64,000 nt of DNA from Candidatus Oxydemutatoraceae bacterium (GCA_965218975.1 OZ244717.1:32001-96000), one strand, 5' to 3'; numbered from the stretch's first letter, positions 44,254 to 57,043 are shown. The notes: generated from the letters alone by a model not told the origin. Translations and numbers: made by a program.

Positions 44254-44330
44254 GTAAAGTACGAACCCGTCTGCAGAATTATGAAGTGAGTTATTGATTT
44301 TACTACGAACCTTCTGACTTATGCAGTATC

Positions 44331-46006
44331 TGTACGATGCCACCCTAAATGGGATTTTTGAAGGGCGCTTCGGGGGAAGCGTTCGGCAGTAACATTCGGA
44401 TCGGTGCTTTCTGTCCGTTGCCGGCATGAGGACGGTGCAGGGTGAGACGCGCCCGGAAAACCGATCGGTTTTCAGCGGCGAACGACCCGACAAGGATGTC
44501 GGGGCTGGCGTTCATTGACAGAACCAAGTCTCGTCATGGACGACAGACACTTTGCTGAGCATTCGCCAACAAACACAAAACGGTTTCATAACCGGTCATT
44601 GAATGCTTCCGTATCGGCGAATAGCAGGTCTTCTGCATGATCGATACAATCTTCTTGGACGGTGCGGTTGAAGCGCTCGATGTGCGCGTTCATTTTTGGA
44701 CACTTGGGATAGGTCAGCCACTGCTCAATCGCGGGTGATTCCCGGATGAGCCGGGCAAACTGTCCTTGAAACTCACTACCACCGTCTGTCAGGGTGAGAT
44801 GCGCCCGGAAAACCGATCGGTTTTCAGCGGCGAACGACCCGACAAGGATGTCGGGGCTGGCGCTCATTGACAGAACCAAGTCTCGTCATGGGTGAGACGC
44901 GCCCGGAAAACCGATTGGTTTTCAGCGGCGAACGACCCGACAAGGACGTCGGGGCTGGCGTTCATTGACAGAACCAAGTCTCGTCATGGACGACAGGCAC
45001 TTTGCTGAGCATTCACCAGCAAACACAAAATAGTTTCATCAGCTCAAAGACTTTACTGCTGCCGAAATTCTGCCAGGCGCAGGAATGCGGCTGCGTTGCG
45101 GCTGTTACAGCGGTTGGTTGCCACTGCTATTGCCATTCGGGTATAGACATCGATGGTCGTTAAGACGTAGCGGCGCACTCCGTGCTGATAACGCACAATC
45201 GTATCCAGGGCGATGCAATGCCCCGCCGGATACTGTGCTTTGAAGTGTTTCGGCTTGCGTGCCCTGCAACGGCGCTTAAACGGTCGTTTTGTTTATCCTT
45301 TGGCATTCAGCCGCTGCGGAATACAGCGCATTTTATCCGGCGCATCTGCGATCAGGCGCGCAATCGTGCGGACACTCAGGCAGGGTGAGACGCGCCCGGA
45401 AAACCAATTGGTTTTCAGCGGTGAACGACCCGACAAGGACGTCGGGGCTGGGGCTTGTTGACAGAACCCAGTCGCGTCATAGATGACAGGCACTTTGCCG
45501 ACAATCCGGCAACAAACACAAAACGGTTTCATCAGCTCAAAGATTTTACTGCTGCCGAGATTCGGATAAGCCTGGCGCAGGGTGAGACGCGCCCGGAAAA
45601 CCGATCGGTTTTCAGCGGCGAACGACTCGACAAGGACGTCAGGGCTGGCGCTCATTGACAGAACCAAGTCTCGTCATGGGTGAGACGCGCCCGGAAAACC
45701 AATTGGTTTTCAGCGGCGAACGATCCGACAAGGATGTCGGGGCTGGCGCTCATTGACAGAACCAAGTCTCGTCATGGACGACAGGCACTGCGCTGACAAT
45801 CCGCTGGCGCCTCTTACGCGGCGCTTTGCCGCGATCATGCAAGGCGCTGAGACCAGTGCGGCGATAACGCCGGCGCCAACGGTACAAAGTACTGCGACCG
45901 ATCTTGAATGCGTTCGGGAGTTACAACCCTCCCAAAATAATAGGGCATCATATTTCTGTTGAAGATTAGAGCGCTCATGAGCCTCTATTTTTGAAGCAAA
46001 ATTGGC
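44331..46006 (-). mobile_element. IS481-family element, non-autonomous copy 1 (left end missing, transposase fragmented)
   Basis: Right IR TGTACGATGCCACCCTAAATGGGA at 44331. Colinear minus-strand fragments: HTH (STLYRWRRRY), LRQAYPNLG, IALDTI, LTDGGSEF, NAHIERFNRTVQE, HRPH. Nonsense TAA at 45293-45295. Confidence 0.85.
44441..45776. repeat. Six copies of a 98-bp structured repeat unit (44441, 44793, 44891, 45384, 45581, 45679)
   Basis: Consensus GGTGAGACGCGCCCGGAAAACCGATCGGTTTTCAGCGGCGAACGACCCGACAAGGAYGTCGGGGCTGGCGYTCATTGACAGAACCAAGTCTCGTCATG; two tandem pairs. Confidence 0.97.
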
Positions 46007-46099
46007 TGTACGATGCCATCATAAATGGGATTTTTGAAGGGCTTCGAAGGAAGCGTTCGGCAGTAACATTCGGATCGGTGCTTTCTGCCCGTTGCCGGC
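46007..46099 (-). mobile_element. Third, partial copy of the same IS (right end only)
   Basis: TGTACGATGCCATCATAAATGGGA...GTTGCCGGC nearly repeats 44331-44425. Confidence 0.85.
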
Positions 46100-46324
46100 T
46101 GAGTCAGGAACAACGACAACTACTTAGAGAGTATGCCGAGGAGCACGGCCTGCAATGCCCTGGTCGGCAGAGCGATCAGGGCAAATAATACGGATTGAGC
46201 GATTTATCCCTGGGTCACAGCGATACGGCAGAATAACGGCAGAGATAGTCATTAGCGGAGGCGACTACCCGCTTTCCAAAACTCGGAAAATCACCCCGGC
46301 GGATCCGCGCATGCTGAAGTTCAG

Positions 46325-47197
46325 TCAATCAAGTCTCGGCTGATCAAACTGAGTATGCGTTTTTTTATCTAAAAGATAAGGATGTGCTGAGCGCAAGGAT
46401 GAGGGGAGAAAGGCTCTTATGGCATAAGCAACCGGACGCGCCAACACATGGAGTAACGACGGTTGTCTTGCAAAGCTGGTAGTATAAACAGGACGCACCC
46501 ATGGTGTTCTTACGGCAAATAGATTGGGCGTGCTGCTATATAGTATCTCCGTATCTATCGTTCGTTGAACATCATACGGAACCAGCTCGGAACAGAAACG
46601 GCGCGCGCATGCCGGAGTGATGACGTACCCGAGCGCCGTATAGTTCAACTTGTTGGGTTCCCACTTCTGCAATACTTTTACGTACTGGTCTGAATATTTT
46701 TCGTACTGGCCAATTCCTCCGGGCCATAGATGTAGAAAATCCGCTGATTCCGGCCATCCAATTCCGTCAAATGGAATCGCAGGATTTATGATAGCGTCAT
46801 CTTCGACAATCATACAAAGATCATCAGCCGGCATTTTACGGCAGAGGTTCCAGATTTCTATTTGGGAAAATGCAGCTGCAATACTTCCTATTCTTCGCAC
46901 CGCAGCGTCCTTTTTTTTCCGCGTGAGCATCGGATCATACTTTTGAGCAAAGTCTTGTGCATATTTTTCCCAACCCAGCCGTAGTTTCAATTTAACCCAC
47001 CACCTGCGGTCATCTTTAATCAGGTGTTGATATTTTGATTCCTCCAGAACCAAATGGTTTTTATTAACCCCGTTATACGAAATAGGCGGCGGTTTGGTTT
47101 GCCAGTTCTGAAATTGCTGTTCAAAGAGCTTGCGCCGTTTCTTTCCGAGCACGGGCGGATTGATCACAAAAATCCGAGTGATGAGACGTTTTTGCAC
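46325..47197 (-). CDS. Glycosyltransferase family 25 protein
   Basis: IFVIN, G......SQ..IW, IVEDDA, GYVITP..A motifs. Confidence 0.75.
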   Translation of the reverse strand: MQKRLITRIFVINPPVLGKKRRKLFEQQFQNWQTKPPPISYNGVNKNHLVLEESKYQHLIKDDRRWWVKLKLRLGWEKYAQDFAQKYDPMLTRKKKDAAVRRIGSIAAAFSQIEIWNLCRKMPADDLCMIVEDDAIINPAIPFDGIGWPESADFLHLWPGGIGQYEKYSDQYVKVLQKWEPNKLNYTALGYVITPACARRFCSELVPYDVQRTIDTEILYSSTPNLFAVRTPWVRPVYTTSFARQPSLLHVLARPVAYAIRAFLPSSLRSAHPYLLDKKTHTQFDQPRLD

Positions 47198-47380
47198 AAC
47201 TTTGTTCTTATCGGTTATGGTAGAGAGCAGTCATTATAACAAAAATACTGCACGATACACCCAGTGTATAGGTCCATAACATTTGCATAAGCTCAGAAAC
47301 ATTTGGCACTATACAGTATCTGCCGGTAAAATATCTTATACAAAATATTGACCAGCTCATTGATACGACTAACAAACGGA

Positions 47381-48685
47381 ATGGAAAACAACAAGCTGTC
47401 AGACCACTCATCCGCATCACTTTTCTCACGCGCCTGCAAATTGATCCCCGGCGGTGTAAACTCACCGGTACGCGCCTTCAAAGGTATGGGACGACACCCA
47501 ATTTTCTTTACCCGCGGTAAAGGGTCGAAACTCTACGACGAAGATAAAAATACCTATTTGGACTACGTCTGCTCTTGGGGATCTTTGATCGTAGGACATG
47601 CTCACCCGCATATCGTCAATGCCGTTATACAAACAACGCAAAACGGCTTGAGTTTCGGCGCGCCGACCAAACTTGAAATTAGAATGGCGGAAAAGCTGTC
47701 CGCTTTAATGCCATCACTGGAAATGGTACGCATGGTCAACTCCGGAACCGAAGCAACCATGAGCGCGATACGACTTGCCCGTGGTTATACTCGCCGCGAA
47801 AAAATCATTAAATTTGCCGGATGTTACCACGGCCATTCCGACAGTTTACTTGTTGAGGCCGGTTCCGGTGTTTTAACTCTAAGTATTCCTGGTTCGCCCG
47901 GCATCACTGCAGCGGCCGCATCCGATACGATTGTTTTGGATTACAACGACTCCAAGCAGCTGGAATCAGCTTTTGAACGATACGCTGATAAAATCGCCGG
48001 AGTGATTATTGAGCCTATCTCCGGCAACATGAACTTTATTCCCGCAGATAAGAAATTTTTGCAGAATCTGCGCCGCTTATGCGATCAATTCGACAGCGTG
48101 CTTATTTATGATGAGGTGATGACCGGCTTTCGAGTGGCGCTTGGCGGCGCTCAAGCGTTATATGGTATCCAACCCAACTTAACGACGCTCGGGAAAGTAA
48201 TTGGTGGTGGGATGCCGGTCGGTGCATTCGGCGGACGTCGCGATATTATGCAAACACTGGCGCCATCAGGCAATGTTTATCAAGCGGGAACTTTATCAGG
48301 CAACCCTGTGGTGATGGCAGCAGGTCTCGCAACTTTGGAATTGGTCGAGACCGATAACTTTTTTGAATCTTTAACTCAAAAAACCAAGACCCTTGTCAAG
48401 GGGTTGACAGAAATTGCTGCTAGTCACAATATCCCGTTCCATAGCGATCACTGCGGCGGAATGTTTGGCTTTTCTTTCATTGATACACCGGCACGTAATT
48501 TCACACAAGCAACGAAAACAAATCCGAAGCGCTTCAAACAATTTCATAATGAAATGTTGCGGCAGCATATCTATCTCGCACCATCGGCATTTGAAGCAAG
48601 CTTTGTTTCAAGCGTACATTCCGATCGGGATATTGCCGAAACTTTGGATGCGGCAAATAAGTCAATGCGCGCATTAAAACAGTAA
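47381..48685 (+). CDS. hemL: Glutamate-1-semialdehyde 2,1-aminomutase
   Basis: IPGGVNSPVRAF, NSGTEATMSA.RLAR, DEVMTGFR, LGKVIGGGMP motifs. Confidence 0.97.
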   Translation: MENNKLSDHSSASLFSRACKLIPGGVNSPVRAFKGMGRHPIFFTRGKGSKLYDEDKNTYLDYVCSWGSLIVGHAHPHIVNAVIQTTQNGLSFGAPTKLEIRMAEKLSALMPSLEMVRMVNSGTEATMSAIRLARGYTRREKIIKFAGCYHGHSDSLLVEAGSGVLTLSIPGSPGITAAAASDTIVLDYNDSKQLESAFERYADKIAGVIIEPISGNMNFIPADKKFLQNLRRLCDQFDSVLIYDEVMTGFRVALGGAQALYGIQPNLTTLGKVIGGGMPVGAFGGRRDIMQTLAPSGNVYQAGTLSGNPVVMAAGLATLELVETDNFFESLTQKTKTLVKGLTEIAASHNIPFHSDHCGGMFGFSFIDTPARNFTQATKTNPKRFKQFHNEMLRQHIYLAPSAFEASFVSSVHSDRDIAETLDAANKSMRALKQ

Positions 48686-48688
48686 GCC

Positions 48689-50512
48689 TCACAACTGGGC
48701 AGAAAAAAGTCTGGTGTAAAGTCCTTGCATTTCGATCAACTGATCATGGTCGCCATGCTCAACAATTTTTCCGTCCTCAAAAACATACACTTGATCCGCC
48801 TGCCGCACCGCGCTCAATCGATGCGCAATAATTAGCATTGTTTTATCATTTAAAACTTCAAATAATGCTCGGTACAAGTCGCACTCTGTCTTAGAATCAA
48901 CAGCGGAAGTCGCTTCATCAAAAATGACCACTCTCGGTTGCATCAATAGCATCCTGGCAATTGCTAAACGCTGACGTTGCCCACCCGACAACTTTAGCCC
49001 TTGCAGCCCGACGACCGTATCAAGTGTTCTGGGCTTTTCCCGAACGAACAAAGCAATTTGCGCAAGCTCTAAAACATCCCACAGCTGGTCATCCGAAGCA
49101 TCGCGCCCTAAAGTCAAGTTTTCACGGATCGTATCATTAAACAACATCGGATGCTGTAGGACGCATCCGACATTTTCGCGCACAGCTTTCAAACCAATCC
49201 GATTGATCAGGACACCTCCGTAAAAAATATTCCCGCTGACTGCTTGATATAAGCCTAGCAATGCGTGTACTAAAGTTGTCTTTCCTCCACCGCTAGCACC
49301 GACAATGGCAATTTTCTCACCAGGAGCAATCGATAAATTTACATCTCTTAGCACTTTGTTTTCCGCGTACGCTAAATTAAGGTTACGTACTTCAACCGAA
49401 ACGGTTTCTCGCTCGCTAAACGGATTTTCTATAGCGGTATAGCTTGGTTCGAGAACAAATTTTAGAATGCGATTTACTCGATCAACCGCAGCTTTCGCCC
49501 CAAACCAAGCATACTGCATATTCAATATTTCCTGGATCGGACCCAACATAAACCACAGATAGCCAAATACCGCGATCATCTCACCGATACTGAGGTCGGA
49601 AAACAATACCATCAACATCCCAATTGCGCGAAAAATATCAAATCCGACCAAAAAAATTAGAAATGAAAAACGATTCGCCATATCGCTTTTCCAAGCAAAT
49701 TTGGTAGCCTTATTTCTTATATCGCGAGCAAAATCAACCAATCTACCAATGTAATGCCTTTCACGATTACTTACCCTGATTTGATGAATAACCGAGAAAG
49801 TCTCGACAACTGCCTGTTGAAAAACCTCAATAGCCTTATTTTCCATACCTTTCAGCTCCTTTACCTGCTTACCGACCATCATCGTAAAATAAATCACGAC
49901 TGGATTAAGCAGAAGAAGAAACAGCGCCAATTGCCAATGTAGAAACATAAGAATGAACGCCGTTGCAATAATCGTCATTATGGAAATTAAGAATCTGCTG
50001 ATAGTCGCGCTAAAAAATTGGTCAAGTGTTTCAAGATCGGTTACCAAATACGAACTGATTGTGCCGCCTCCTTCACTTTCATATTCCGTAATGGAAGTTT
50101 TGCTTAAATACCACAACAATCTCCGGCGAAGATGGAAAATAATGTTTTTTGAAACCCGATAAAAAATCCATGACTGCCAAACGGTAAGCAACCATGAAAT
50201 TAACCTCAAAGCAATTGTGACCAATAACACTACAGCAATATAAAATTCCGGTTCATAAAAATATTCGGGAAATATAAATCGGATAGTAGCGGTCAATCGT
50301 CCCGGTATATCAAGTAAAACTTCATCAACCATCAGTGGCATCAGCAATGGCAACGGCGCACTTGCCAAAGTCGCAAAAACTGCGACAATATTGGCAATAA
50401 TCAGTTCCTGACGACGCTGAGTCGCCAAAGCAAATAAGCCTTTCAAACTGTAAGAAGGAGATCTTCCGCCATTAAAGTCGGAAGACTGCATCGTTGTGCT
50501 ATCGCCTAGCAC
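48689..50512 (-). CDS. ABC transporter, fused permease/ATP-binding protein
   Basis: TM domain plus GASGGGKT, LSGGQRQR, FDEATSA. Confidence 0.92.
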   Translation of the reverse strand: MLGDSTTMQSSDFNGGRSPSYSLKGLFALATQRRQELIIANIVAVFATLASAPLPLLMPLMVDEVLLDIPGRLTATIRFIFPEYFYEPEFYIAVVLLVTIALRLISWLLTVWQSWIFYRVSKNIIFHLRRRLLWYLSKTSITEYESEGGGTISSYLVTDLETLDQFFSATISRFLISIMTIIATAFILMFLHWQLALFLLLLNPVVIYFTMMVGKQVKELKGMENKAIEVFQQAVVETFSVIHQIRVSNRERHYIGRLVDFARDIRNKATKFAWKSDMANRFSFLIFLVGFDIFRAIGMLMVLFSDLSIGEMIAVFGYLWFMLGPIQEILNMQYAWFGAKAAVDRVNRILKFVLEPSYTAIENPFSERETVSVEVRNLNLAYAENKVLRDVNLSIAPGEKIAIVGASGGGKTTLVHALLGLYQAVSGNIFYGGVLINRIGLKAVRENVGCVLQHPMLFNDTIRENLTLGRDASDDQLWDVLELAQIALFVREKPRTLDTVVGLQGLKLSGGQRQRLAIARMLLMQPRVVIFDEATSAVDSKTECDLYRALFEVLNDKTMLIIAHRLSAVRQADQVYVFEDGKIVEHGDHDQLIEMQGLYTRLFSAQL

Positions 50513-51306
50513 CGAGATATTCCGCGTTGCGCATATACTCGCTGCTGCCGTATAGCTTGTTGAAACATTTGATAATTTTTGCTTGGGAGTTCTATCTTAT
50601 CATCTCCCAAATGAAGCACTGTAACCGCATAATTTCCATCCTTACGACGAACACCACGGTTCAACATCCGCACAACTAAATCCGAATCTTCATATCCCCG
50701 TCCTTCAAATCGCTCGTCAAATCCTCCTACTGCATAAAAATCCTTCCGATAAAAAGCCAAGTTAAAGCCAGTTGCGCCCTGCCACTTCTTATACTTCAAC
50801 TTCCTAAAAAATCCTCCGGGTAAATGTAATAAAGGTAGTATGCGCTGTACCTTCCCCGCCATCCTCAAACGTATCCACTGAGCAATACTGTAATTAAAAA
50901 TTGGCAAGCGCTCTAACTTCACCGTTGCAGTAAACGAATCCGTCAGCTTGATTCGTGAACCTCGGACAAACCAGCCAGGTTGCGCCAAACGCCGATGACG
51001 AAAAACAAAGCCGGGCAGTGACACACAATCTCCATCCAAGAATATAAAATACTCGCCGCGTGCTTGCATCGCGCCTAAATTTTTTACCGCTGCTAAGCGA
51101 TATCCTCTATCCTCCTGCCGTATATGTACTAGGCGATAAGGAAATGTTCTTTTATAATGGGCAATCAAGTCTTCAGTTTTTTGAGTAGAACCGTCATCCG
51201 CGACAATCACTTCAAATTTTTTATCGGTCTGACAAATAAAACTATCCAAAATGATTGTCAGGCACTCCGGCTGATTATATGTTGCCACGATAATGGAAAT
51301 TAGCAT
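50506..51306 (-). CDS. Glycosyltransferase family 2
   Basis: IIVATYN, ADDGS, FLDGDC, GFDE.F.G.G.EDSD motifs. Confidence 0.92.
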   Translation of the reverse strand: MLISIIVATYNQPECLTIILDSFICQTDKKFEVIVADDGSTQKTEDLIAHYKRTFPYRLVHIRQEDRGYRLAAVKNLGAMQARGEYFIFLDGDCVSLPGFVFRHRRLAQPGWFVRGSRIKLTDSFTATVKLERLPIFNYSIAQWIRLRMAGKVQRILPLLHLPGGFFRKLKYKKWQGATGFNLAFYRKDFYAVGGFDERFEGRGYEDSDLVVRMLNRGVRRKDGNYAVTVLHLGDDKIELPSKNYQMFQQAIRQQRVYAQRGISRC

Positions 51307-51429
51307 GGTAGAATACTCAATGCAAACCTTGCTTTATACAAGAAATTATAGAAAATACAATTTTTTGATTCGCGCAAGTGTAAACTTATAAATCATTATA
51401 TATAGTAAAAAACCCCTCTACTTTTTCCA

Positions 51430-52284
51430 ATGAATATCGGAATTATCGGCTACGGTATCGTAGGGAGATCTATTGCGGCAGGCTTTCAGAGCCGGTGCTC
51501 TCTTTATATTTATGACAGCAGCCCAAAAAGCTATGCGGATGACACGGCAAAAGAAAAAATAGTGTTGTGTCAGGATGTGAGCGCTGTTATTAAAAATGCT
51601 GAATTTATTTTTGTCTGCGTTCCCACACCCAGAAAAAAAAATACCAATCACTCGTTTGATGGCACACATTTAGATGCCACATTGCGTGCCATTGCGCAAA
51701 GCAAGTTAACAAACAAAAAACATATTCTGATCATAAAAAGCACTGTCGTGCCATCGAAAATCAGGGAATATGTTACCGAGTATCCTCAGTTAAATCTCGT
51801 AATCTGCCCGGAGTTCCTTATTGAAAAGAATTTTATTGAATGTTTTCTTAAGCCTAATTATCGTATATATGGCGGAGAAAATGAACAAACTCGCAAAGTG
51901 CACCAATTATTTGAGAAACATAGTATTTGCCAGCCGTGCAAAATTGCTTACACTGATTATTATAGCGCCTCTATCATAAAGTATATGATTAATTCCTTTC
52001 TCGCAATGAAGGTCAGTTATATGAATCAATTCTATGACATAGCAAAATTAAGCGGCGTCCAAATGCGGTGGGAGCAACTGGAGGAAATTTTCCATTATGA
52101 CACACGGGTAGGAAACAGCCACTCCAACGTACCGGGACACGACGGGCAAAGAGGATGGGGCGGGAAATGTTTCCCCAAAGACGTATCCGCAATCATTGAC
52201 GAAGCAAAAATGCATGGCTATACTTTAGACATATTGCAAGCGGTCTGGGATTACAATTATTCACTACGCAATGACATTGATTGA
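51430..52284 (+). CDS. UDP-glucose/GDP-mannose dehydrogenase family protein, short form
   Basis: GYGIVG, CVPTP, KSTV.P, PEFL, KY..NSFLA.KV, GGKCFPKD; ends without the C-terminal UDP-binding domain. Confidence 0.85.
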   Translation: MNIGIIGYGIVGRSIAAGFQSRCSLYIYDSSPKSYADDTAKEKIVLCQDVSAVIKNAEFIFVCVPTPRKKNTNHSFDGTHLDATLRAIAQSKLTNKKHILIIKSTVVPSKIREYVTEYPQLNLVICPEFLIEKNFIECFLKPNYRIYGGENEQTRKVHQLFEKHSICQPCKIAYTDYYSASIIKYMINSFLAMKVSYMNQFYDIAKLSGVQMRWEQLEEIFHYDTRVGNSHSNVPGHDGQRGWGGKCFPKDVSAIIDEAKMHGYTLDILQAVWDYNYSLRNDID

Positions 52285-52588
52285 TCGTACGCGGTCAACC
52301 TCATGAGCAAAATATAGCCAGTCTATTAGTAGCTTTTCTATCACTATGTGTCGCCAAAGGTAAAACCTACAGCGACTATCAAGGGAGGTTTTATACAGCC
52401 CTGAAAACATTTAAAACTCGAGTTCTTTCTCACTTCGGACTATACAGTGACAACCCCAGGTATTCGGGCAAAGCGGCGGGGCTGCAACGCTCGGACAACT
52501 AGGCATTTGGGCATTTCCCCCTCCCACCGAGCCATCCGTTTATTATGCGATGTTGTTTAACGATGTTAGGGTATAGTAGCTTTATTCC

Positions 52589-53248
52589 TTATTTGCACTG
52601 CCAATACCTCTTCACGTTTTTAAAGTGATTTATTCGTTCATTGATCTTGAAACTTTCCTTCGGGTAAAAATCCAAAAGGTTATCGCACATTTCAATCATC
52701 CAATTTTTACGCTTATTCTTGAGCATGAGAGTCACAGTACTCGCGTTGGCTATCTGAATTTGTCCCCACCCTAATGCTCCAAGCGTCAGGCAACCCCAGG
52801 AAATAAACTCTATCGGAACAAAAGTGACCCTATCAATTATTCATCTCGTATTTTCTACCTTATAGTTTACTTTCAAGACGCAGAAATGATTTTTGTCATC
52901 CTCATAAAATCGCGATAGTCGCTCAACCGAAGTTAGATTCGGCATATTAAACTTTGTATCAAGCCGATGAGTTTTGACATCAACGACATAGTAAAAATTG
53001 TCCTTATCGGTGAAAGCGAGGTCGGCCATTGCCCGGCGCGCAAATTGGGAAGAATATTCTTTCGGCAGAGCACCTAAAATCGTCCCGAAGTTTTCGGCAA
53101 GGATGTTTTCTATTGCGCCGCCGACGGCACGAGGACTATTGATTGTTCTGGGAAAAAGAAAATCAGTTTGCTCGCTGAGGAAATCCCTGATTTTCTTTTC
53201 GAGTTCTCTGTAAGTGTCCGTATAGAAAATTTTGCTTTTTGGCATCAT
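52589..53248 (-). pseudogene. Type II restriction endonuclease interrupted by an in-frame TGA
   Basis: AD......DVKTH (PD-D/ExK-like). After TGA at 52841-52843 the same frame continues for 83 codons (FVPIEF..W.CLT.GALGWGQIQIAN...) to TAA at 52589. Overlaps the MTase stop. Confidence 0.75.
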
Positions 53249-54261
53249 GGAGGTTTACTGTCAAATAATGGCTTCTGACTTTCCGATTCCCCATTATTTT
53301 TGCCCTTGATATTCAGTTGCTTACTAAGGGTATTGCGCTCCCAAAAAACACCGCCGGAATAACCCTGAATAGTTTTGTCCGCTTCCGCCATTTCAAGTCG
53401 CTTTTCTGCAAGACAGCCGTAAAACTCATCTATTTCAATTCCTACATAGTTTCTACCCAGTTTTTTGGCAACAACCGATGTAGTGCCCGAACCGAGAAAT
53501 GGGTCAAAAACTATATGCTCGGGCTTTGAGCTTGCGAGGAGAATTTTTGCGACAAGCTTTTCCGGCTTTTGTGTCGGGTGATCCGTGTTCTCCGACATAG
53601 ACCAAAATGGGATGGTCATATCAGTCCAAATGTTCGAAGGATGGGTTAAACGATATTTGCCGTTCTCATCCTCGCTCCAATCTTTCTCTCTGCCGAAACC
53701 ATCACGATAAGGAGCAATAACCTTTCTTTTCATTTTCACCGCGTCAACATCAAAATGATAATCTCTTGACATGGTGCAAAACCAAATATCCTCGGAGCTA
53801 TTTTTCCAGTTTGTTTTTGCGCCCCGCCCTTTTTCTCTTTCAAATGTAATACGGTTTTGAATCGCAAAATACTTTCGCGCGACATTGAAAATTGCGCCGG
53901 ATGATTTCCAATCGCCACAGATGTAGATTGATGCGGTTGGCTTCAAAAGCCGAACCATTTTGCTTACCCAAGAATCAAACCACTTTGCGTATTTCTCCGA
54001 TTCCATTGCCTTGAAAGTAGTGAGATTGAAAGTTTTGTTGAGATTGTATGGCGGGTCGATGAAAACAAGATCAATAAACTGGTCCGGCAGATGATCAAGT
54101 GTATCGAAAATATCTTGTTGTATTGTCGTATTCAAGATTTCATCAACAGAAATCGGCTTATCGATTTTGATAAGTCGTTTTTTGTATCTCTCCTTCTCGC
54201 TATCGCTCAAGTCAATGGTGCGATTGCGTGGAGCGCGCTGTTTTGTCGTGTTATAACTCAT
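53245..54261 (-). CDS. Site-specific amino (N4-C/N6-A) DNA methyltransferase, beta class
   Basis: DPPY precedes HPTQKP and DPFLGSGTT. Confidence 0.93.
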   Translation of the reverse strand: MSYNTTKQRAPRNRTIDLSDSEKERYKKRLIKIDKPISVDEILNTTIQQDIFDTLDHLPDQFIDLVFIDPPYNLNKTFNLTTFKAMESEKYAKWFDSWVSKMVRLLKPTASIYICGDWKSSGAIFNVARKYFAIQNRITFEREKGRGAKTNWKNSSEDIWFCTMSRDYHFDVDAVKMKRKVIAPYRDGFGREKDWSEDENGKYRLTHPSNIWTDMTIPFWSMSENTDHPTQKPEKLVAKILLASSKPEHIVFDPFLGSGTTSVVAKKLGRNYVGIEIDEFYGCLAEKRLEMAEADKTIQGYSGGVFWERNTLSKQLNIKGKNNGESESQKPLFDSKPP

Positions 54262-54432
54262 GTTTAATAAATCAAATCATCAACTCCCACATCAACAATA
54301 TTGGCAATTTTAGCAAGCGTCTCAATAGTCAGAGTTCGGGCTGTGTCGCCCGCTGAAAAACCCCTCCCCTCCGACAAGTGTGGCTAGCAAGGCAACAAGC
54401 TACCCGGCGCTTTCCCCAAAAGCAAAATACGG

Positions 54433-54522
54433 CGGAGAGGGCGGGATTCGAACCCGCGTGCCGACTTACATCGACCATCTGATTTCGAGTCAGCGCCGTT
54501 ATGACCGCTTCGGTACCTCTCC
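54433..54522 (-). tRNA. tRNA-Ser(CGA)
   Basis: GGAGAGG acceptor stem, CT-CGA-AA anticodon loop, long variable arm, GGTTCGAATCC; CCA not encoded. Confidence 0.95.
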
Positions 54523-54687
54523 GTTAGTAAAGCACTGAGGGACACTGTCTGTCTATAGCATTCGCTTTACTCTCTTAAAAGCGCATTTCGACCTGACATC
54601 CGTGCCAAAGACGCTTCCATAGCATCTTTTCTCATCAACTAACAGTTCCGCAAATTGGCAACTCTTTGTCAGATTAAGCAACTTTGG

Positions 54688-55317
54688 CTAGCTTTGCGCA
54701 AGTAGCTCCTTTAATAACCCTTCAATTGCACTAGCGCGACGGCTCCCTTTGTGAATCTCTCCGACAAAAACACCGCGAATATTACCTCGCTTATCAATCA
54801 CATAGTACGCAGGCCAATACTTATTCCGCATGGCTCGCCAGTAGCTGAAATCATTGTCGATCATGATCGGATGATGCAACTCAAACTCCGCAGATTTCCG
54901 GCGAACGTTGTCGATATCACGCTCGTGATCAAACTCCGGCGAATGCACACCGATGATTTGGAAAGCGTCACCATCAAACCGCTGCTCAACGGAACGCAAC
55001 CATGGAAATGAACGATAGCAATTCCAACAATCAAAAGTCCAAAAATCTATCAGAACCACCTTGCCTCTCAACTCAGAAAGCTTCAACGGTTCAGAGTTTA
55101 ACCATTCGGTCGGTTGTCTATGAGTGAATTCAGGCGCTACAGTGGGTCGCGCCAATTTACCGAAAGGAGTTGCCGCCGCAGGAAGCGACAGTGCGGATAG
55201 AATATAAAACGCAATCAGGCCCCATGCCATAACCCGTACGTATTGCTTATATCCATAAACGGTTTTGTGTTGGTCAGTCACGAGTGAATACCTCCTATGA
55301 TACATCAGCGCTATCAT
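54688..55317 (-). CDS. Exported redoxin (DipZ-like thioredoxin domain)
   Basis: WLNS.PL, DFWTFDCWNC, GVHSPEF, N.YWPA motifs; start uncertain. Confidence 0.85.
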   Translation of the reverse strand: MIALMYHRRYSLVTDQHKTVYGYKQYVRVMAWGLIAFYILSALSLPAAATPFGKLARPTVAPEFTHRQPTEWLNSEPLKLSELRGKVVLIDFWTFDCWNCYRSFPWLRSVEQRFDGDAFQIIGVHSPEFDHERDIDNVRRKSAEFELHHPIMIDNDFSYWRAMRNKYWPAYYVIDKRGNIRGVFVGEIHKGSRRASAIEGLLKELLAQS

Positions 55318-55449
55318 ACACTAGTACGTGCGGTTGCCTATTCACTGTATAGGTCCATAACATTCACCACATCGGGTGATGCTTTAGCTATGCCACTGAT
55401 ACAACCGTCCGTCCGATTCTTTATTAGATGCCCGGCATAACTTATCTCC

Positions 55450-57043
55450 TGTACAGTGCCAGATACATGTGGGATTCACGGCACGACTCAAAAAGGTAAC
55501 CGATATGCAATATCAGCACATCGGCCACCGCATCAAAGGTTTCTATATGAGCCAATTTTGCTTCAAAAATAGAGGCTCATAAACACAACGGCTCAACAGA
55601 AATATGATGCCCTATTATTTTGGGAGGGTTGTAACTCCCGAACGCATTCAAGATCAATCGCAGTACTTTGTACCGCTGGCGCCGGCGTTATCGCCGCATT
55701 GGCCTCAGCGCCTTACATGATTGCGGCAAAGCGCCGCGTAAGAGGCGCCAGCGGATTGTCAGCAAAGTGCTTGTCGTCCATGACGAGACTTGGTTCTGTC
55801 AATGAACGCCAGCCCCGACGTCCTTGTCGAGTCGTTCGCCGCTGAAAACCGATCGGTTTTCCGGGCGCGTCTCACCCTGCCCGAGTGTCTGCACGATTGC
55901 GCGCCTGATCGCAGATGCGCCGGATAAAATGCGCTGTATTCCGCAGCGGCTGAATGCCAAAGGACAAACAAAACGACCGTTTAAGCGCCGTTGCAGGGCA
56001 CGCAAGCCGAAACACTTCAAAGCACAGTATCCGGGGCATTGCATCGCCCTGGATACGATTGTGCGTGATCAGCACGGAGTACGCCGCTACGTCTTAACGG
56101 CCATCAATGCCTATACCCGAATGGCAATAGCAGTGGCAACCAACCGCTGTAACAGCCACAACGCAGCCGCATTCCTGCGCCTGGCAGAATTTCGGCAGCA
56201 GTAAAGTCTTTGAGCTGATGAAACCATTTTGTGTTTGCTGCCGGATTGTCGGCGGATTGTGCCGGATTGTCAGCGCAGTGCCTGTCGTCCATGACGAGAC
56301 TTGGTTCTGTCAATGAGCGCCAGCCCCGACATCCTTGTCGGGTCGTTCGCCGCTGAAAACCAATTGGTTTTCCGGGCGCGTCTCACCCATGACGAGACTT
56401 GGTTCTGTCAATGAGCGCCAGCCCCGACGTCCTTGTCGGGTCGTTCGCCGCTGAAAACCGATCGGTTTTCCGGGCGCGTCTCACCCTGACGGACGGCGGG
56501 AGTGAGTTTCAAGGACAGTTTGCCCGGCTCATCCGGGAATCACCCGTGATTGAGCAGTGGCTGACCTATCCCAAGTGTCCAAAAATGAACGCGCACATCG
56601 AGTGCTTCAACCGCACCGTCCAAGAAGATTGTATCGATCATGCAAAAGACCTGCTATTCGCCGATACGGAAGCATTCAATGACCGGTTATGAAACCGTTT
56701 TGTGTTTGTTGGCGGATTTTCGGCACAGTGCCTGTCATCCATGACGAGACTTGGTTCTGTCAATGAGCGCCAGCCCCGACGTCCTTGTCGGGTCGTTCAC
56801 CGCTGAAAACCAATTGGTTTTCCGGGCGCGTCTCACCCATGACGAGACTTGGTTCTGTCAATGAGCGCCAGCCCCGACGTCCTTGTCGGGTCGTTCGCCA
56901 CTGAAAACCGATCGGTTTTCCGGGCACGTCTCACCCTACACCGTCCTCATGCCGGCAACGGACAGAAAGCACCGGTCCGAATGTTACTGCCGAACGCTTC
57001 CTCCGAAGCCCTTCAAAAATCCCATTTAGGGTGGCATCGTACA
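55450..57043 (+). mobile_element. IS481-family element, non-autonomous copy 2 with both IRs and a target duplication
   Basis: Left IR TGTACAGTGCCAGATACATGTGGGA; right IR ...TCCCATTTAGGGTGGCATCGTACA; flanks ATCTCC/ATCTCT (6 bp, 1 mismatch). ATG at 55505 (MQYQHIGHRIKGFY). DDE fragments IALDTI, LTDGGSEF, HIECFNRT. Confidence 0.9.
55779..56935. repeat. Five copies of the 98-bp unit, reverse orientation (55779, 56290, 56388, 56740, 56838)
   Basis: CATGACGAGACTTGGTTCTGTCAATGA...CCGGGCGCGTCTCACC; two tandem pairs. Confidence 0.97.

Follow-up and report, generated by a model that had tools for sequence, protein, structure and literature searches.

A 98-bp structured repeat inside IS481-like elements of a Candidatus Oxydemutatoraceae bacterium and its homologues beside tRNA genes

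INTRODUCTION

[quoted passage not shown] In the tyrT operon of Escherichia coli, rtT repeats form tandem 178-bp units, each ending in a copy of a tRNA 3΄ end. SINE and L1 elements move by target-primed retroposition, and Helitron and IS91 elements by one-ended rolling-circle transposition. A minisatellite within a MITE, named BrickBuilt, has been described in Porphyromonas gingivalis (PMC4596501). Here, we analyzed a 98-bp unit (U) that recurs in a 64,000-nt stretch (the window) of the genome of a Candidatus Oxydemutatoraceae bacterium (GCA_965218975.1, OZ244717.1:32001-96000), inside two copies of an IS481-like insertion sequence (IS). We conclude that U is a passenger, which entered this IS a few times and was then copied genome-wide together with the IS and by array expansion. 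It belongs to a widespread and apparently undescribed family of small elements with hairpins, whose members in other bacteria usually lie beside tRNA genes.

BrickBuilt resembles this arrangement in having a leader, spacerless tandem repeats and a tail in a transposon-derived carrier, and in being multi-copy, species-restricted, variable in length and non-coding. Likewise, a leader, spacerless tandem units, a tail, a carrier bounded by terminal inverted repeats (TIRs) and variable copy number are all found here, as in a minisatellite within a transposon. However, BrickBuilt has a 23-nt repeat and 19 copies and is described as always intergenic, whereas the present repeat measures 98 nt with two conserved hairpins, occurs as 319 units at four sites inside a transposase gene, and has homologues in other bacterial families. 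U shares with REP/REPIN, ERIC and MITEs the small size, non-autonomy, hairpins and dispersal, but differs in its two unlike hairpins, in the absence of TIRs, of a TSD and of a RAYT or Y1 gene, and in its tandem arrays and directional anatomy, with a fixed 3΄ end and a variable 5΄ end. As the original prediction for the window had stated, U is not a classical MITE: such elements have TIRs and a flanking target-site duplication (TSD) at each copy, and U has neither. Of the hallmarks of REP/REPIN-RAYT systems or palindrome-associated transposable elements (PATEs) of the IS200/IS605 type (a Y1 transposase gene, like hairpins at both ends and insertion 3΄ of a fixed short motif), it shows only the last, a fixed preceding motif (..RTCC/..CACCC).

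RESULTS

Distribution of the unit in the window and the genome

The genome consists of one 2.081-Mb contig without N (47.7% G+C). The window holds 11 units of 98 bp, six at 44440-45775 and five at 55780-56936 (Table 1), and their orientation relative to the transposase is constant; for the 44440-45775 group (IS copy 1), the minus strand is the IS sense orientation. All of this agrees with the original prediction, which had been made from the sequence of the window. The 11 units were 89.8-100% identical to one reference unit, and Tandem Repeats Finder (TRF) delineated four tandem pairs of 98 bp (94-96% matches). In the sense direction of the IS, U begins ATGACGAGAC and finishes GTCTCACCC. A blastn search of the whole genome returned 338 high-scoring segment pairs, of which 319 were >=40 nt and 303 near full length; inside the 64 kb it matched the same 11 units only, so that the window is otherwise free of units. 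Among 268 gapless copies, 211 distinct 98-mers were found, and the units total ~31 kb, or 1.5% of the genome.

Table 1. Coordinates of the 98-bp units, the IS copies and associated sequences in the window, and loci of tRNA-adjacent homologues
Feature	Position	Strand	Remarks
Unit U	44440-44537	minus	Site 4 (D/E), IS copy 1
Unit U	44792-44889	minus	Site 3 (C/D), second of two, IS copy 1
Unit U	44890-44987	minus	Site 3 (C/D), first of two, IS copy 1
Unit U	45383-45480	minus	Site 2 (B/C), putative founder site, IS copy 1
Unit U	45580-45677	minus	Site 1 (A/B), second of two, IS copy 1
Unit U	45678-45775	minus	Site 1 (A/B), first of two, IS copy 1
Unit U	55780-55877	plus	IS copy 2
Unit U	56291-56388	plus	IS copy 2
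Unit U	56389-56486	plus	IS copy 2
Unit U	56741-56838	plus	IS copy 2
Unit U	56839-56936	plus	IS copy 2
IS481-like copy 1 (IS-1)	44330..46006	minus	Segment map; rve/rve_3 and transpos_IS481 matches on C and D pieces
Extra IS-1 3΄ end (E[10-110], right inverted repeat)	46007..46103	minus	Directly abuts segment A of copy 1
Leader tail, 5΄-truncated	45778..45803	minus	CGGATTGTCAGCGCAGTGCCTGTCGTCC; site 1; takes the place of ~35 native nt
Non-native leader	45481..45517	minus	Site 2; TGTTTGTTG, 11-nt repeat, tail ...GTGCCTGTCATCT; native 19 nt CCATCGCCACCAGCTGCTC gone
Segment B copy and leader	44990..45083	minus	Brought along to site 3; C[300-393] ~ B[1-98]
Leader	44538..44586	minus	Site 4; 8-nt segment-B flank ATGAAACC; native 23 nt GGAGTATTTAGCCTGGTATAAGC replaced (empty sites)
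IS481-like copy 2	55450..57043	plus	Complete, from left inverted repeat (TGTACAGTGCC...) to right inverted repeat
tRNA-adjacent homologue loci			L109, L110, L112, L113, L117-L119, L123; L063, L064, L078 (other genomes)

Genome-wide, we counted 144 arrays of 1-12 units each (63 singles, 39 pairs, 22 triples, the rest larger). IS481-like sequence flanks both sides of 130/144 arrays, one side of 10/144 and neither side of 4/144; the last four are either fragments or belong to secondary tandem repeats with the IS right end as their terminus. The claim that U lies only inside IS481-like copies is thus true in the window and nearly so in the genome. Orientation relative to the IS is constant throughout, except for one nested inverted unit. 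Array periods are 98, 107, ~160 and ~197 bp; successive units are spaced by 0 nt (90 units), by a collapsed spacer of 8-9 nt (29 units), by a whole leader of ~60 nt (9 units) or, in a fourth class, by ~99-120 nt corresponding to segment B plus leader. None of the 45 tRNA genes of this genome has a unit within 100 nt. A 302-bp tandem repeat in three copies (G000:C1:1034800-1035800, where G000 denotes this genome) ends in the IS right end, and each repeat comprises a 5΄-truncated 98-bp unit and 223 nt of other sequence.

With leader plus unit as blastn query, no copy was found in 40 related genomes, and no match was obtained among plasmids and phages. An exact 25-nt pattern matched nothing in genome or metagenome collections, in which records close to the window's genome may be left out. 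A word search of the literature, which cannot match sequence, found no description of the repeat.

The carrier elements

The IS fragments around the arrays gave their best match to the NCBIfam profile transpos_IS481 (E-values of 1.8e-15 to 3.8e-6, 2.6e-9 and 3.8e-6 among them), and these matches were co-linear over profile positions 21-284; rve, rve_3 and HTH_28 were also matched. Intact transposases of relatives (337-370 aa, from other genera of the same family) scored 182-191 bits on transpos_IS481, for which the curated cut-off is 224, and 93-115 bits on the IS3 profile. Because the intact relatives fall below the curated cut-off, with IS3 in second place, we call the carrier IS481-like. 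It extends from a left inverted repeat (IRL), TGTACAGTGCCAGATACATGTGGGA, to a right inverted repeat (IRR), ...CCCATTTAGGGTGGCATCGTACA; as in IS481, the TIRs start with TGT and short target duplications are found.

The principal carrier, IS-1, is divisible into native segments A to E, and arrays occupy four recurrent places in it, A/B, B/C, C/D and D/E (sites 1 to 4). In sense order, copy 1 in the window reads A (the N-terminal helix-turn-helix (HTH) region), UU, B, U, C, UU, D, U, E; its segment E is the 3΄ end with IRR ...GGCATCGTACA, and the IRL region of ~105 nt is lacking. Copy 2 reads A, U, C, tail, UU, D, UU, E, segment B having been lost. IS-1 hosts most arrays and a sister element, IS-2 (IRL TGCATAAGCTCAG...), hosts some; tiny derivatives composed of IS ends, leader and units also carry arrays. 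A profile search for rve returned only fragmentary matches in this genome. A third IS481-like element, IS-3 (G000:C1:558400-560000, locus L041), is unit-free and frameshifted, and no intact transposase was seen in the genome for any of the three IS types.

Some further arrangements of these elements were observed. The junction between the extra IRR and copy 1 at 46006/46007 could represent a partial tandem IS or a circle-junction-like arrangement. Two IS-2 ends stand back to back at ~47240-47320 of the window (G000:C1:79289), where ...TGTATAGGTCCATAACATTTGCAT is directly followed by AAGCTCAGAAACATTTGGCACTATACA; this may be a minimal IS-2 derivative or an end-to-end junction. IS copies 1 and 2 are inverted relative to each other and bracket ~9.4 kb (46.1-55.4 kb), an inversion-prone arrangement, and a 90-nt tRNA gene lies between them at 54433-54522 (minus). 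Elsewhere in the genome, two IS-1 derivatives (G000:C1:841275-842098 and 879554-880374) have both flanks identical, which suggests a segmental duplication including the element.

Leader, junctions and replaced bases

Ahead of each array on the IS sense strand lies a leader, which consists of GTTTTGTGTTTG.., a variable number of 11-nt CGGATTGTSSS repeats and a tail ..GCAAAGTGCCTGTCRTCC. The ~27-nt tail noticed earlier in the window is therefore real, and the tail motif is followed by a unit in 169/171 matches genome-wide. Units are always preceded by ..RTCC or ..CACCC. The 3΄ end is fixed, 125/144 arrays finishing in CACCC whatever partner follows, and in most native contexts that could be read by eye the target resumes after CC. 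Across genera, this boundary keeps its place 8-16 nt 3΄ of a conserved hairpin, and no nucleotide on its 3΄ side is conserved. In contrast, the 5΄ junctions vary, falling into at least nine classes, and show microhomology.

We compared empty with filled copies to read which native bases the arrays had replaced. At D/E, the native bases are 23 nt (GGAGTATTTAGCCTGGTATAAGC), and the junction 44440>44587 was seen with native letters between in Logan contigs. The corresponding figures are 19 nt (CCATCGCCACCAGCTGCTC) at B/C, with an empty site at G000:C1:210850-211520, ~35 nt at A/B (empty-site copies; Logan contigs) and ~13 nt in one variant of C/D. Flanking direct repeats are absent from the sites in the IS; native bases are deleted there instead. 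Because native codons are deleted, no splicing or bypass could restore the transposase. A ribozyme or intron was rejected on this ground, and no ribozyme family was matched.

At B/C, the leader meets native sequence through a GTTTTG overlap. The segment-B flank ATGAAACC accompanies the leader at D/E and at the IRL of IS-2, and almost all of segment B accompanies it at C/D; elsewhere, the leader is truncated to 15-27 nt. Because leaders at other sites carry flank from upstream of B/C, we take B/C to be the founder site from which the others were copied.

Identical illegitimate junctions recur across the genome: TTATG joined to AAACC (the D/E-site junction) lies upstream of 39 units, CGGAT joined to TGTC (the A-site junction) upstream of 20, and GTGAAA joined to CC upstream of 10. 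Since the same illegitimate junctions are found at tens of loci, they must have been formed once and then inherited. Accordingly, the 11 units of the window do not represent 11 insertions, as had been proposed; its two IS copies are paralogues of one composite IS. Exact 5-bp direct repeats abut 5/32 IRL-IRR pairs, compared with ~0.03 expected by chance (TCTAT, ACTTA, GCGCC, ACTGA and CCCTT; a sixth pair is offset by one base). All five elements flanked by these TSDs are unit-bearing, defective and 663-1834 bp long, and therefore the composite IS and its deletion derivatives have transposed, necessarily in trans. Architectures include A-U-E, A-U-B-U-E, D-U-D-U-E, (B-U)n and IS-2/IS-1 chimaeras, a variety that is what recombination between directly repeated units predicts.

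Structure and variation of the unit

The view of U as a small, structured, non-coding and non-autonomous repeat that disrupts the transposase frame was borne out. Of the folding predicted earlier, two hairpins are supported by covariation in homologues (see below), whereas a closing stem of GAGAC with GTCTC was rejected: these motifs are all that the two unit ends have in common, the 7-93 pair is broken in 93/268 copies, and the pairing is lost in subtype b. Folding z-scores of single units are unremarkable (-0.8 to -1.4), and units within the genome are too alike for a pairing test, most stem positions being invariant. The palindrome centre changes as a couple (GC in 166, AT in 85, AC in 11 and GT in 2 copies), a change from CGATCG to CAATTG is seen among units, and one array has a C-G to G-C swap. 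Variable positions resemble decayed CpG, with TG, CA or TA but never CG at 24-25, and G>A or C>T at 41, 59, 72 and 75. Cytosine methylation or deamination may account for this pattern, or palindrome-preserving correction.

Other candidate functions of the sequence were rejected. Homologues have a frame, P.PTSLS.RSP.K, in common; because this shared frame changes when the stems covary, and two of three frames carry stops, nucleic-acid structure is preferred over a peptide. GTCTC/GAGAC lies near both unit boundaries and might be a type IIS site, but the predicted cuts fit one end only and subtype b lacks the site. Comparison by eye found no resemblance to attC, dif or IS ends.

Homologues in other genomes

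A covariance model built from the units (R1) matched two genomes of another genus of the same family. A rebuilt model (R2) matched those two and, weakly, one further genome of the order, and the rebuilt models (R2 and R3) also matched two metagenome contigs and one contig of a metagenome-assembled genome (MAG). When the rebuilt models were run on 150 other genomes, drawn evenly from the class, 26 of these proved to contain homologues; a single genome gave up to 23 matches, scoring having been limited to 26 candidates in each. The positives include an unpublished genome (G192, locus L126), and leaving it out gives 25/149 positive genomes and 8/18 tRNA-adjacent loci. Window units scored 120.7-128.5 bits with R1 and 129.5-132.6 bits with R2 (four units listed); as window units are among the sequences from which R1 and R2 were built, these scores are not independent.

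All homologues start with (A/G/T/C)TG.CG, preceded by a tail ..GYC(R)TCC, and end with CG.CTCACCC; between these lie, in order, a hairpin whose loop is TCCY, the invariant block CGTTCGCCG and a further hairpin. Compensatory changes were found in 6/8 pairs of the first hairpin; none of 500 shuffles (0/500) reached the observed covariation, and in slid controls the score dropped to one third of the observed value or lower. Every homologue also folds into the second hairpin, the sequence of which is unrelated. Because of this covariation and folding in homologues from other genomes, we conclude that both hairpins are conserved as structures, be it of RNA or of single-stranded DNA. No match to Rfam was obtained for any unit at E<=1 (window region, L063 and L064) or, in seven further homologue loci, at E<=0.1; in the original prediction, too, the repeat was not recognized as any described family.

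The genomic contexts of the homologues differ from those of U. In the two genomes of the same family, each of the three loci adjoins a tRNA gene (for Lys, Ser and Thr). For 19 positive class genomes, ARAGORN was applied to the best loci and placed a tRNA gene at most 35 nt from the leader side in 9/19 (Phe, Arg, Ser, Lys, His and Thr tRNAs are represented among loci at 20-35 nt); at a tenth, a tRNA-like flank is cut by the contig end. By our estimate, ~0.1-0.2% of random positions would be that near a tRNA. Relative to the tRNA, the element lies upstream in antisense orientation at 8/9 of these loci and downstream in sense at the ninth. At tRNA-adjacent loci, the sequence directly after ...CTCACCC repeats the tRNA end, and the repeat starts, as judged by eye, after the CC that encodes the conserved D-loop GG. 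A 9-30 nt repeat beginning 0-2 nt after the element end and matching sequence 39-45 nt upstream of its start was found in 12/28 elements; all of these but L116, a tandem duplicate with its nearest tRNA ~300 nt away, are at loci with an ARAGORN tRNA or a tRNA-like flank (11/12). In other genomes, 2-3 units commonly stand in tandem, each with its own tRNA-end repeat. The features by which we provisionally define a tRNA-adjacent structured element, for which we take the start as (A/G)TG.CG, are also found in the window units.

Other homologues lie in plain intergenic DNA, for example between genes of the TsaD family (tRNA t6A synthesis) and the PEBP family, and one interrupts a truncated type IV coupling-protein-like open reading frame (ORF; TrwB_AAD_bind, 21.4 bits, cut-off 20.5). 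Copies away from tRNA genes have no direct repeats. The homologues in other genomes, by tRNA genes or intergenic, are thus outside IS481 elements, which speaks against the proposal that the repeat is a specific parasite or silencer of IS481. In a further genome (G099), a homologous module is part of a longer repeat, dispersed and bounded by inverted ends of AATTCCCGCTGG type, at 6/6 loci examined (L127-L132); more than 20 near-identical matches are present among the matches listed, and one copy has two modules in tandem. Here, too, a transposon seems to have captured and amplified the element.

The tRNA-linked homologues recall two described arrangements. Like rtT, they form tandem units by a tRNA gene that are bounded by a copy of a tRNA end; however, they are mostly upstream, antisense and duplicate the tRNA 5΄ end, and no match to Rfam rtT (RF00391) was obtained at E<=1 or E<=0.1. 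Like att-flanked integrative elements at tRNA genes, they are flanked by direct repeats of a tRNA end, but the element is ~130 nt long without an integrase, varied tRNAs are concerned, each with its own repeats, mostly the tRNA 5΄ end is duplicated, and non-tRNA copies lack repeats. Sequence and layout are not in common with either.

Searches for a mobilizing enzyme

The suggestion that the mobilizing enzyme is not encoded agrees with our profile searches, in which this genome had no match to RVT_1 (reverse transcriptase), Y1_Tnp (Y1 transposase) or Relaxase (PF03432); Y2_Tnp likewise had no match here, a search that is uninformative as its control matched in no genome. Among five other positive genomes tested, RVT_1 was present in 3/5 and Y1_Tnp in 2/5, so that neither is consistently present. 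RVT_1 is absent from G008, which has three tandem units.

DISCUSSION

The explanation that we hold on balance to be the probable one is DNA template switching in repair or replication among homologous IS copies, followed by transposition of the carriers and unequal recombination. U with its leader would be a local offshoot of a widespread family of ~100-130 nt non-coding elements with two conserved hairpins. One copy may have entered IS-1 at site 2, between the HTH region and the catalytic domain, replacing 19 native nt, and blocks of leader and U with site-2 IS flank would then have been copied to three other IS-1 sites and to IS-2 through templated, microhomology-mediated events. Each copied block would end at the 3΄ end of the unit (...CACCC) and rejoin the target just after CC, whereas its start would vary within the leader or its upstream flank, 13-35 nt of the target being removed. 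The composite IS, now defective, would have been mobilized in trans to >100 loci, and recombination between direct-repeat units would have produced the arrays and the modular deletion derivatives. Today, U would keep every IS-1 copy broken and act as a rearrangement hot spot. A common rule may hold for IS and tRNA sites, by which a block ending ...C(A/G)CCC rejoins after CC near its departure point; rejoining upstream would cause target duplication (tRNA loci) and rejoining downstream a small deletion (IS sites).

Several points weigh against this explanation. We infer the order of events, and template switching on DNA instead of an RNA- or nick-based copy step, from the anatomy of the junctions, which target-primed reverse transcription or repair at a site-specific nick would fit equally well. 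The stop exactly at ...CACCC, in many genera, is unexplained by plain template switching, and it is mainly because of this exact copying boundary that bolder readings are kept alive. Restriction to IS481-like DNA needs homology-guided repair among IS copies together with hitch-hiking, and gene conversion among IS copies, not transposition, could have generated some of the shared junctions. Moreover, no intact transposase able to mobilize the carriers was found in this genome by the rve search, the landing at D/E follows GC instead of CC, and 28/303 units have a 5΄ context that was left unclassified.

The junction anatomy could also result from RNA-mediated retroposition, in which a transcript ending ...CACCC is reverse-transcribed at a nicked target that pairs with its terminal CC(C). 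Under this process, the 3΄ end would be fixed, the 5΄ side truncated or joined to carried-over flank, and the target duplicated (tRNA) or deleted (IS); it would also fit the tRNA-end repeats that begin right after ...CTCACCC; template jumping could make head-to-tail arrays. L1 and SINE insertions have junction features matching these. However, an available reverse transcriptase, as expected for a non-LTR or SINE-like element, is missing here as in G008 and is present in only 3/5 positive genomes, and neither poly(A)-like nor untemplated tracts were seen, so that retroposition is unlikely. More generally, U behaves like SINE/L1 and Helitron/IS91 elements in having one fixed end, flank carry-over, microhomology, a duplicated or deleted target and head-to-tail arrays, and like Helitrons in its subterminal 3΄ hairpin; it differs from them in that no reverse transcriptase was found in the genome and in the absence of poly(A) and of CTRR or TC ends, and the resemblance is one of behaviour, not of membership. 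Site-specific nicking or strand transfer at the 3΄ boundary by an enzyme acting in trans (an HUH Rep, relaxase, IS91-like or other recombinase) would explain why the distance from hairpin to boundary is kept across genera, and also the tandem multimers and one-ended variability; one homologue, moreover, abuts the coupling-protein-like ORF mentioned above. We nevertheless regard such an enzyme as quite improbable, in view of the negative Relaxase and Y1_Tnp searches (that for Y2_Tnp being uninformative), the lack of a conserved nucleotide 3΄ of the boundary and the mild replichore bias. With 62/98 loci co-oriented with replication, this bias is also too weak for a single-stranded DNA transposon, a candidate that was rejected.

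The original prediction saw in U an active, trans-mobilized mini-element that targets IS481 transposase genes as a parasite or silencer, each copy being an insertion. The observation behind it stands. In its favour, IS481-like DNA holds nearly every array, in a single orientation; no fewer than four sites were hit in IS-1 and two or more in IS-2, and each hit disrupts the reading frame. Eleven insertions and an IS-specific parasite do not stand: the same junctions occur at tens of loci on carriers with 5-bp TSDs of their own, the 5΄ junctions have no common target motif, homologues elsewhere are outside IS481 elements, and later copies carry site-2 IS flank, as expected for copying within the IS pool. 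An active element of this kind is accordingly improbable. A functional small RNA or a cis-regulatory or protein-binding module under selection, acting for instance on tRNA genes elsewhere and incidentally abundant or domesticated here, would be in keeping with hairpins that covary across genera, with the invariance of loop TCCY and the CGTTCGCCG block, with the position 20-35 nt from tRNA ends in 9/19 loci, and with the coupled palindrome centre. Yet hundreds of copies reside in dead IS, CpG-like positions decay freely, most genomes of the class lack the element, two of three frames carry stops, and Rfam gave no match, which makes selection for such a function very unlikely. Dense repeats are hard to assemble, and artefactual arrays had been named as a condition that would overturn the observation. 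This is hardly credible, as the genome is one contig without N and 121 loci show a consistent architecture. The summed word depth, which is not copy number, in Logan contigs of run X1, which may be the source sample, was 28,800-80,300 over unit-only bins versus ~140-180 over unique flanks; units were present in contigs from runs of four studies, with empty and filled junctions both seen. The depth and the multi-study contigs therefore indicate that the arrays are not assembly artefacts, even if X1 may be the source sample.

Beyond template switching among IS copies, a bolder reading concerns the whole class. U could belong to a class-wide, ~130-nt, non-autonomous family homing to tRNA gene ends, whose fixed 3΄ end primes or rejoins on CC (the DNA of the tRNA D-loop GG), giving 9-30 nt tRNA-end duplications or, elsewhere, small deletions, in a SINE-like or nick-templated manner; transposons would have captured and amplified it here and in G099. 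We consider this reading tentative and somewhat doubtful, though a serious possibility.

In this genome, a passenger has been amplified to 1.5% of 2 Mb by a defective IS, and its direct-repeat units have then rearranged and trimmed the carrier, leaving a modular family. The case bears on how IS bursts die and how MITE-like derivatives arise in small or host-restricted genomes. The wider element family, apparently undescribed, combines covarying hairpins with invariant single-stranded blocks and occurs in about one in six of the sampled genomes of the class, where it is typically placed 20-35 nt from the end of a tRNA gene. Its fixed 3΄ end, its landing at CC and the duplication or deletion of its target point to a directional copy mechanism, be it template switching, retroposition or nick-primed synthesis, and there is a substantial chance that the family represents a new type of tRNA-end-seeking mobile element.

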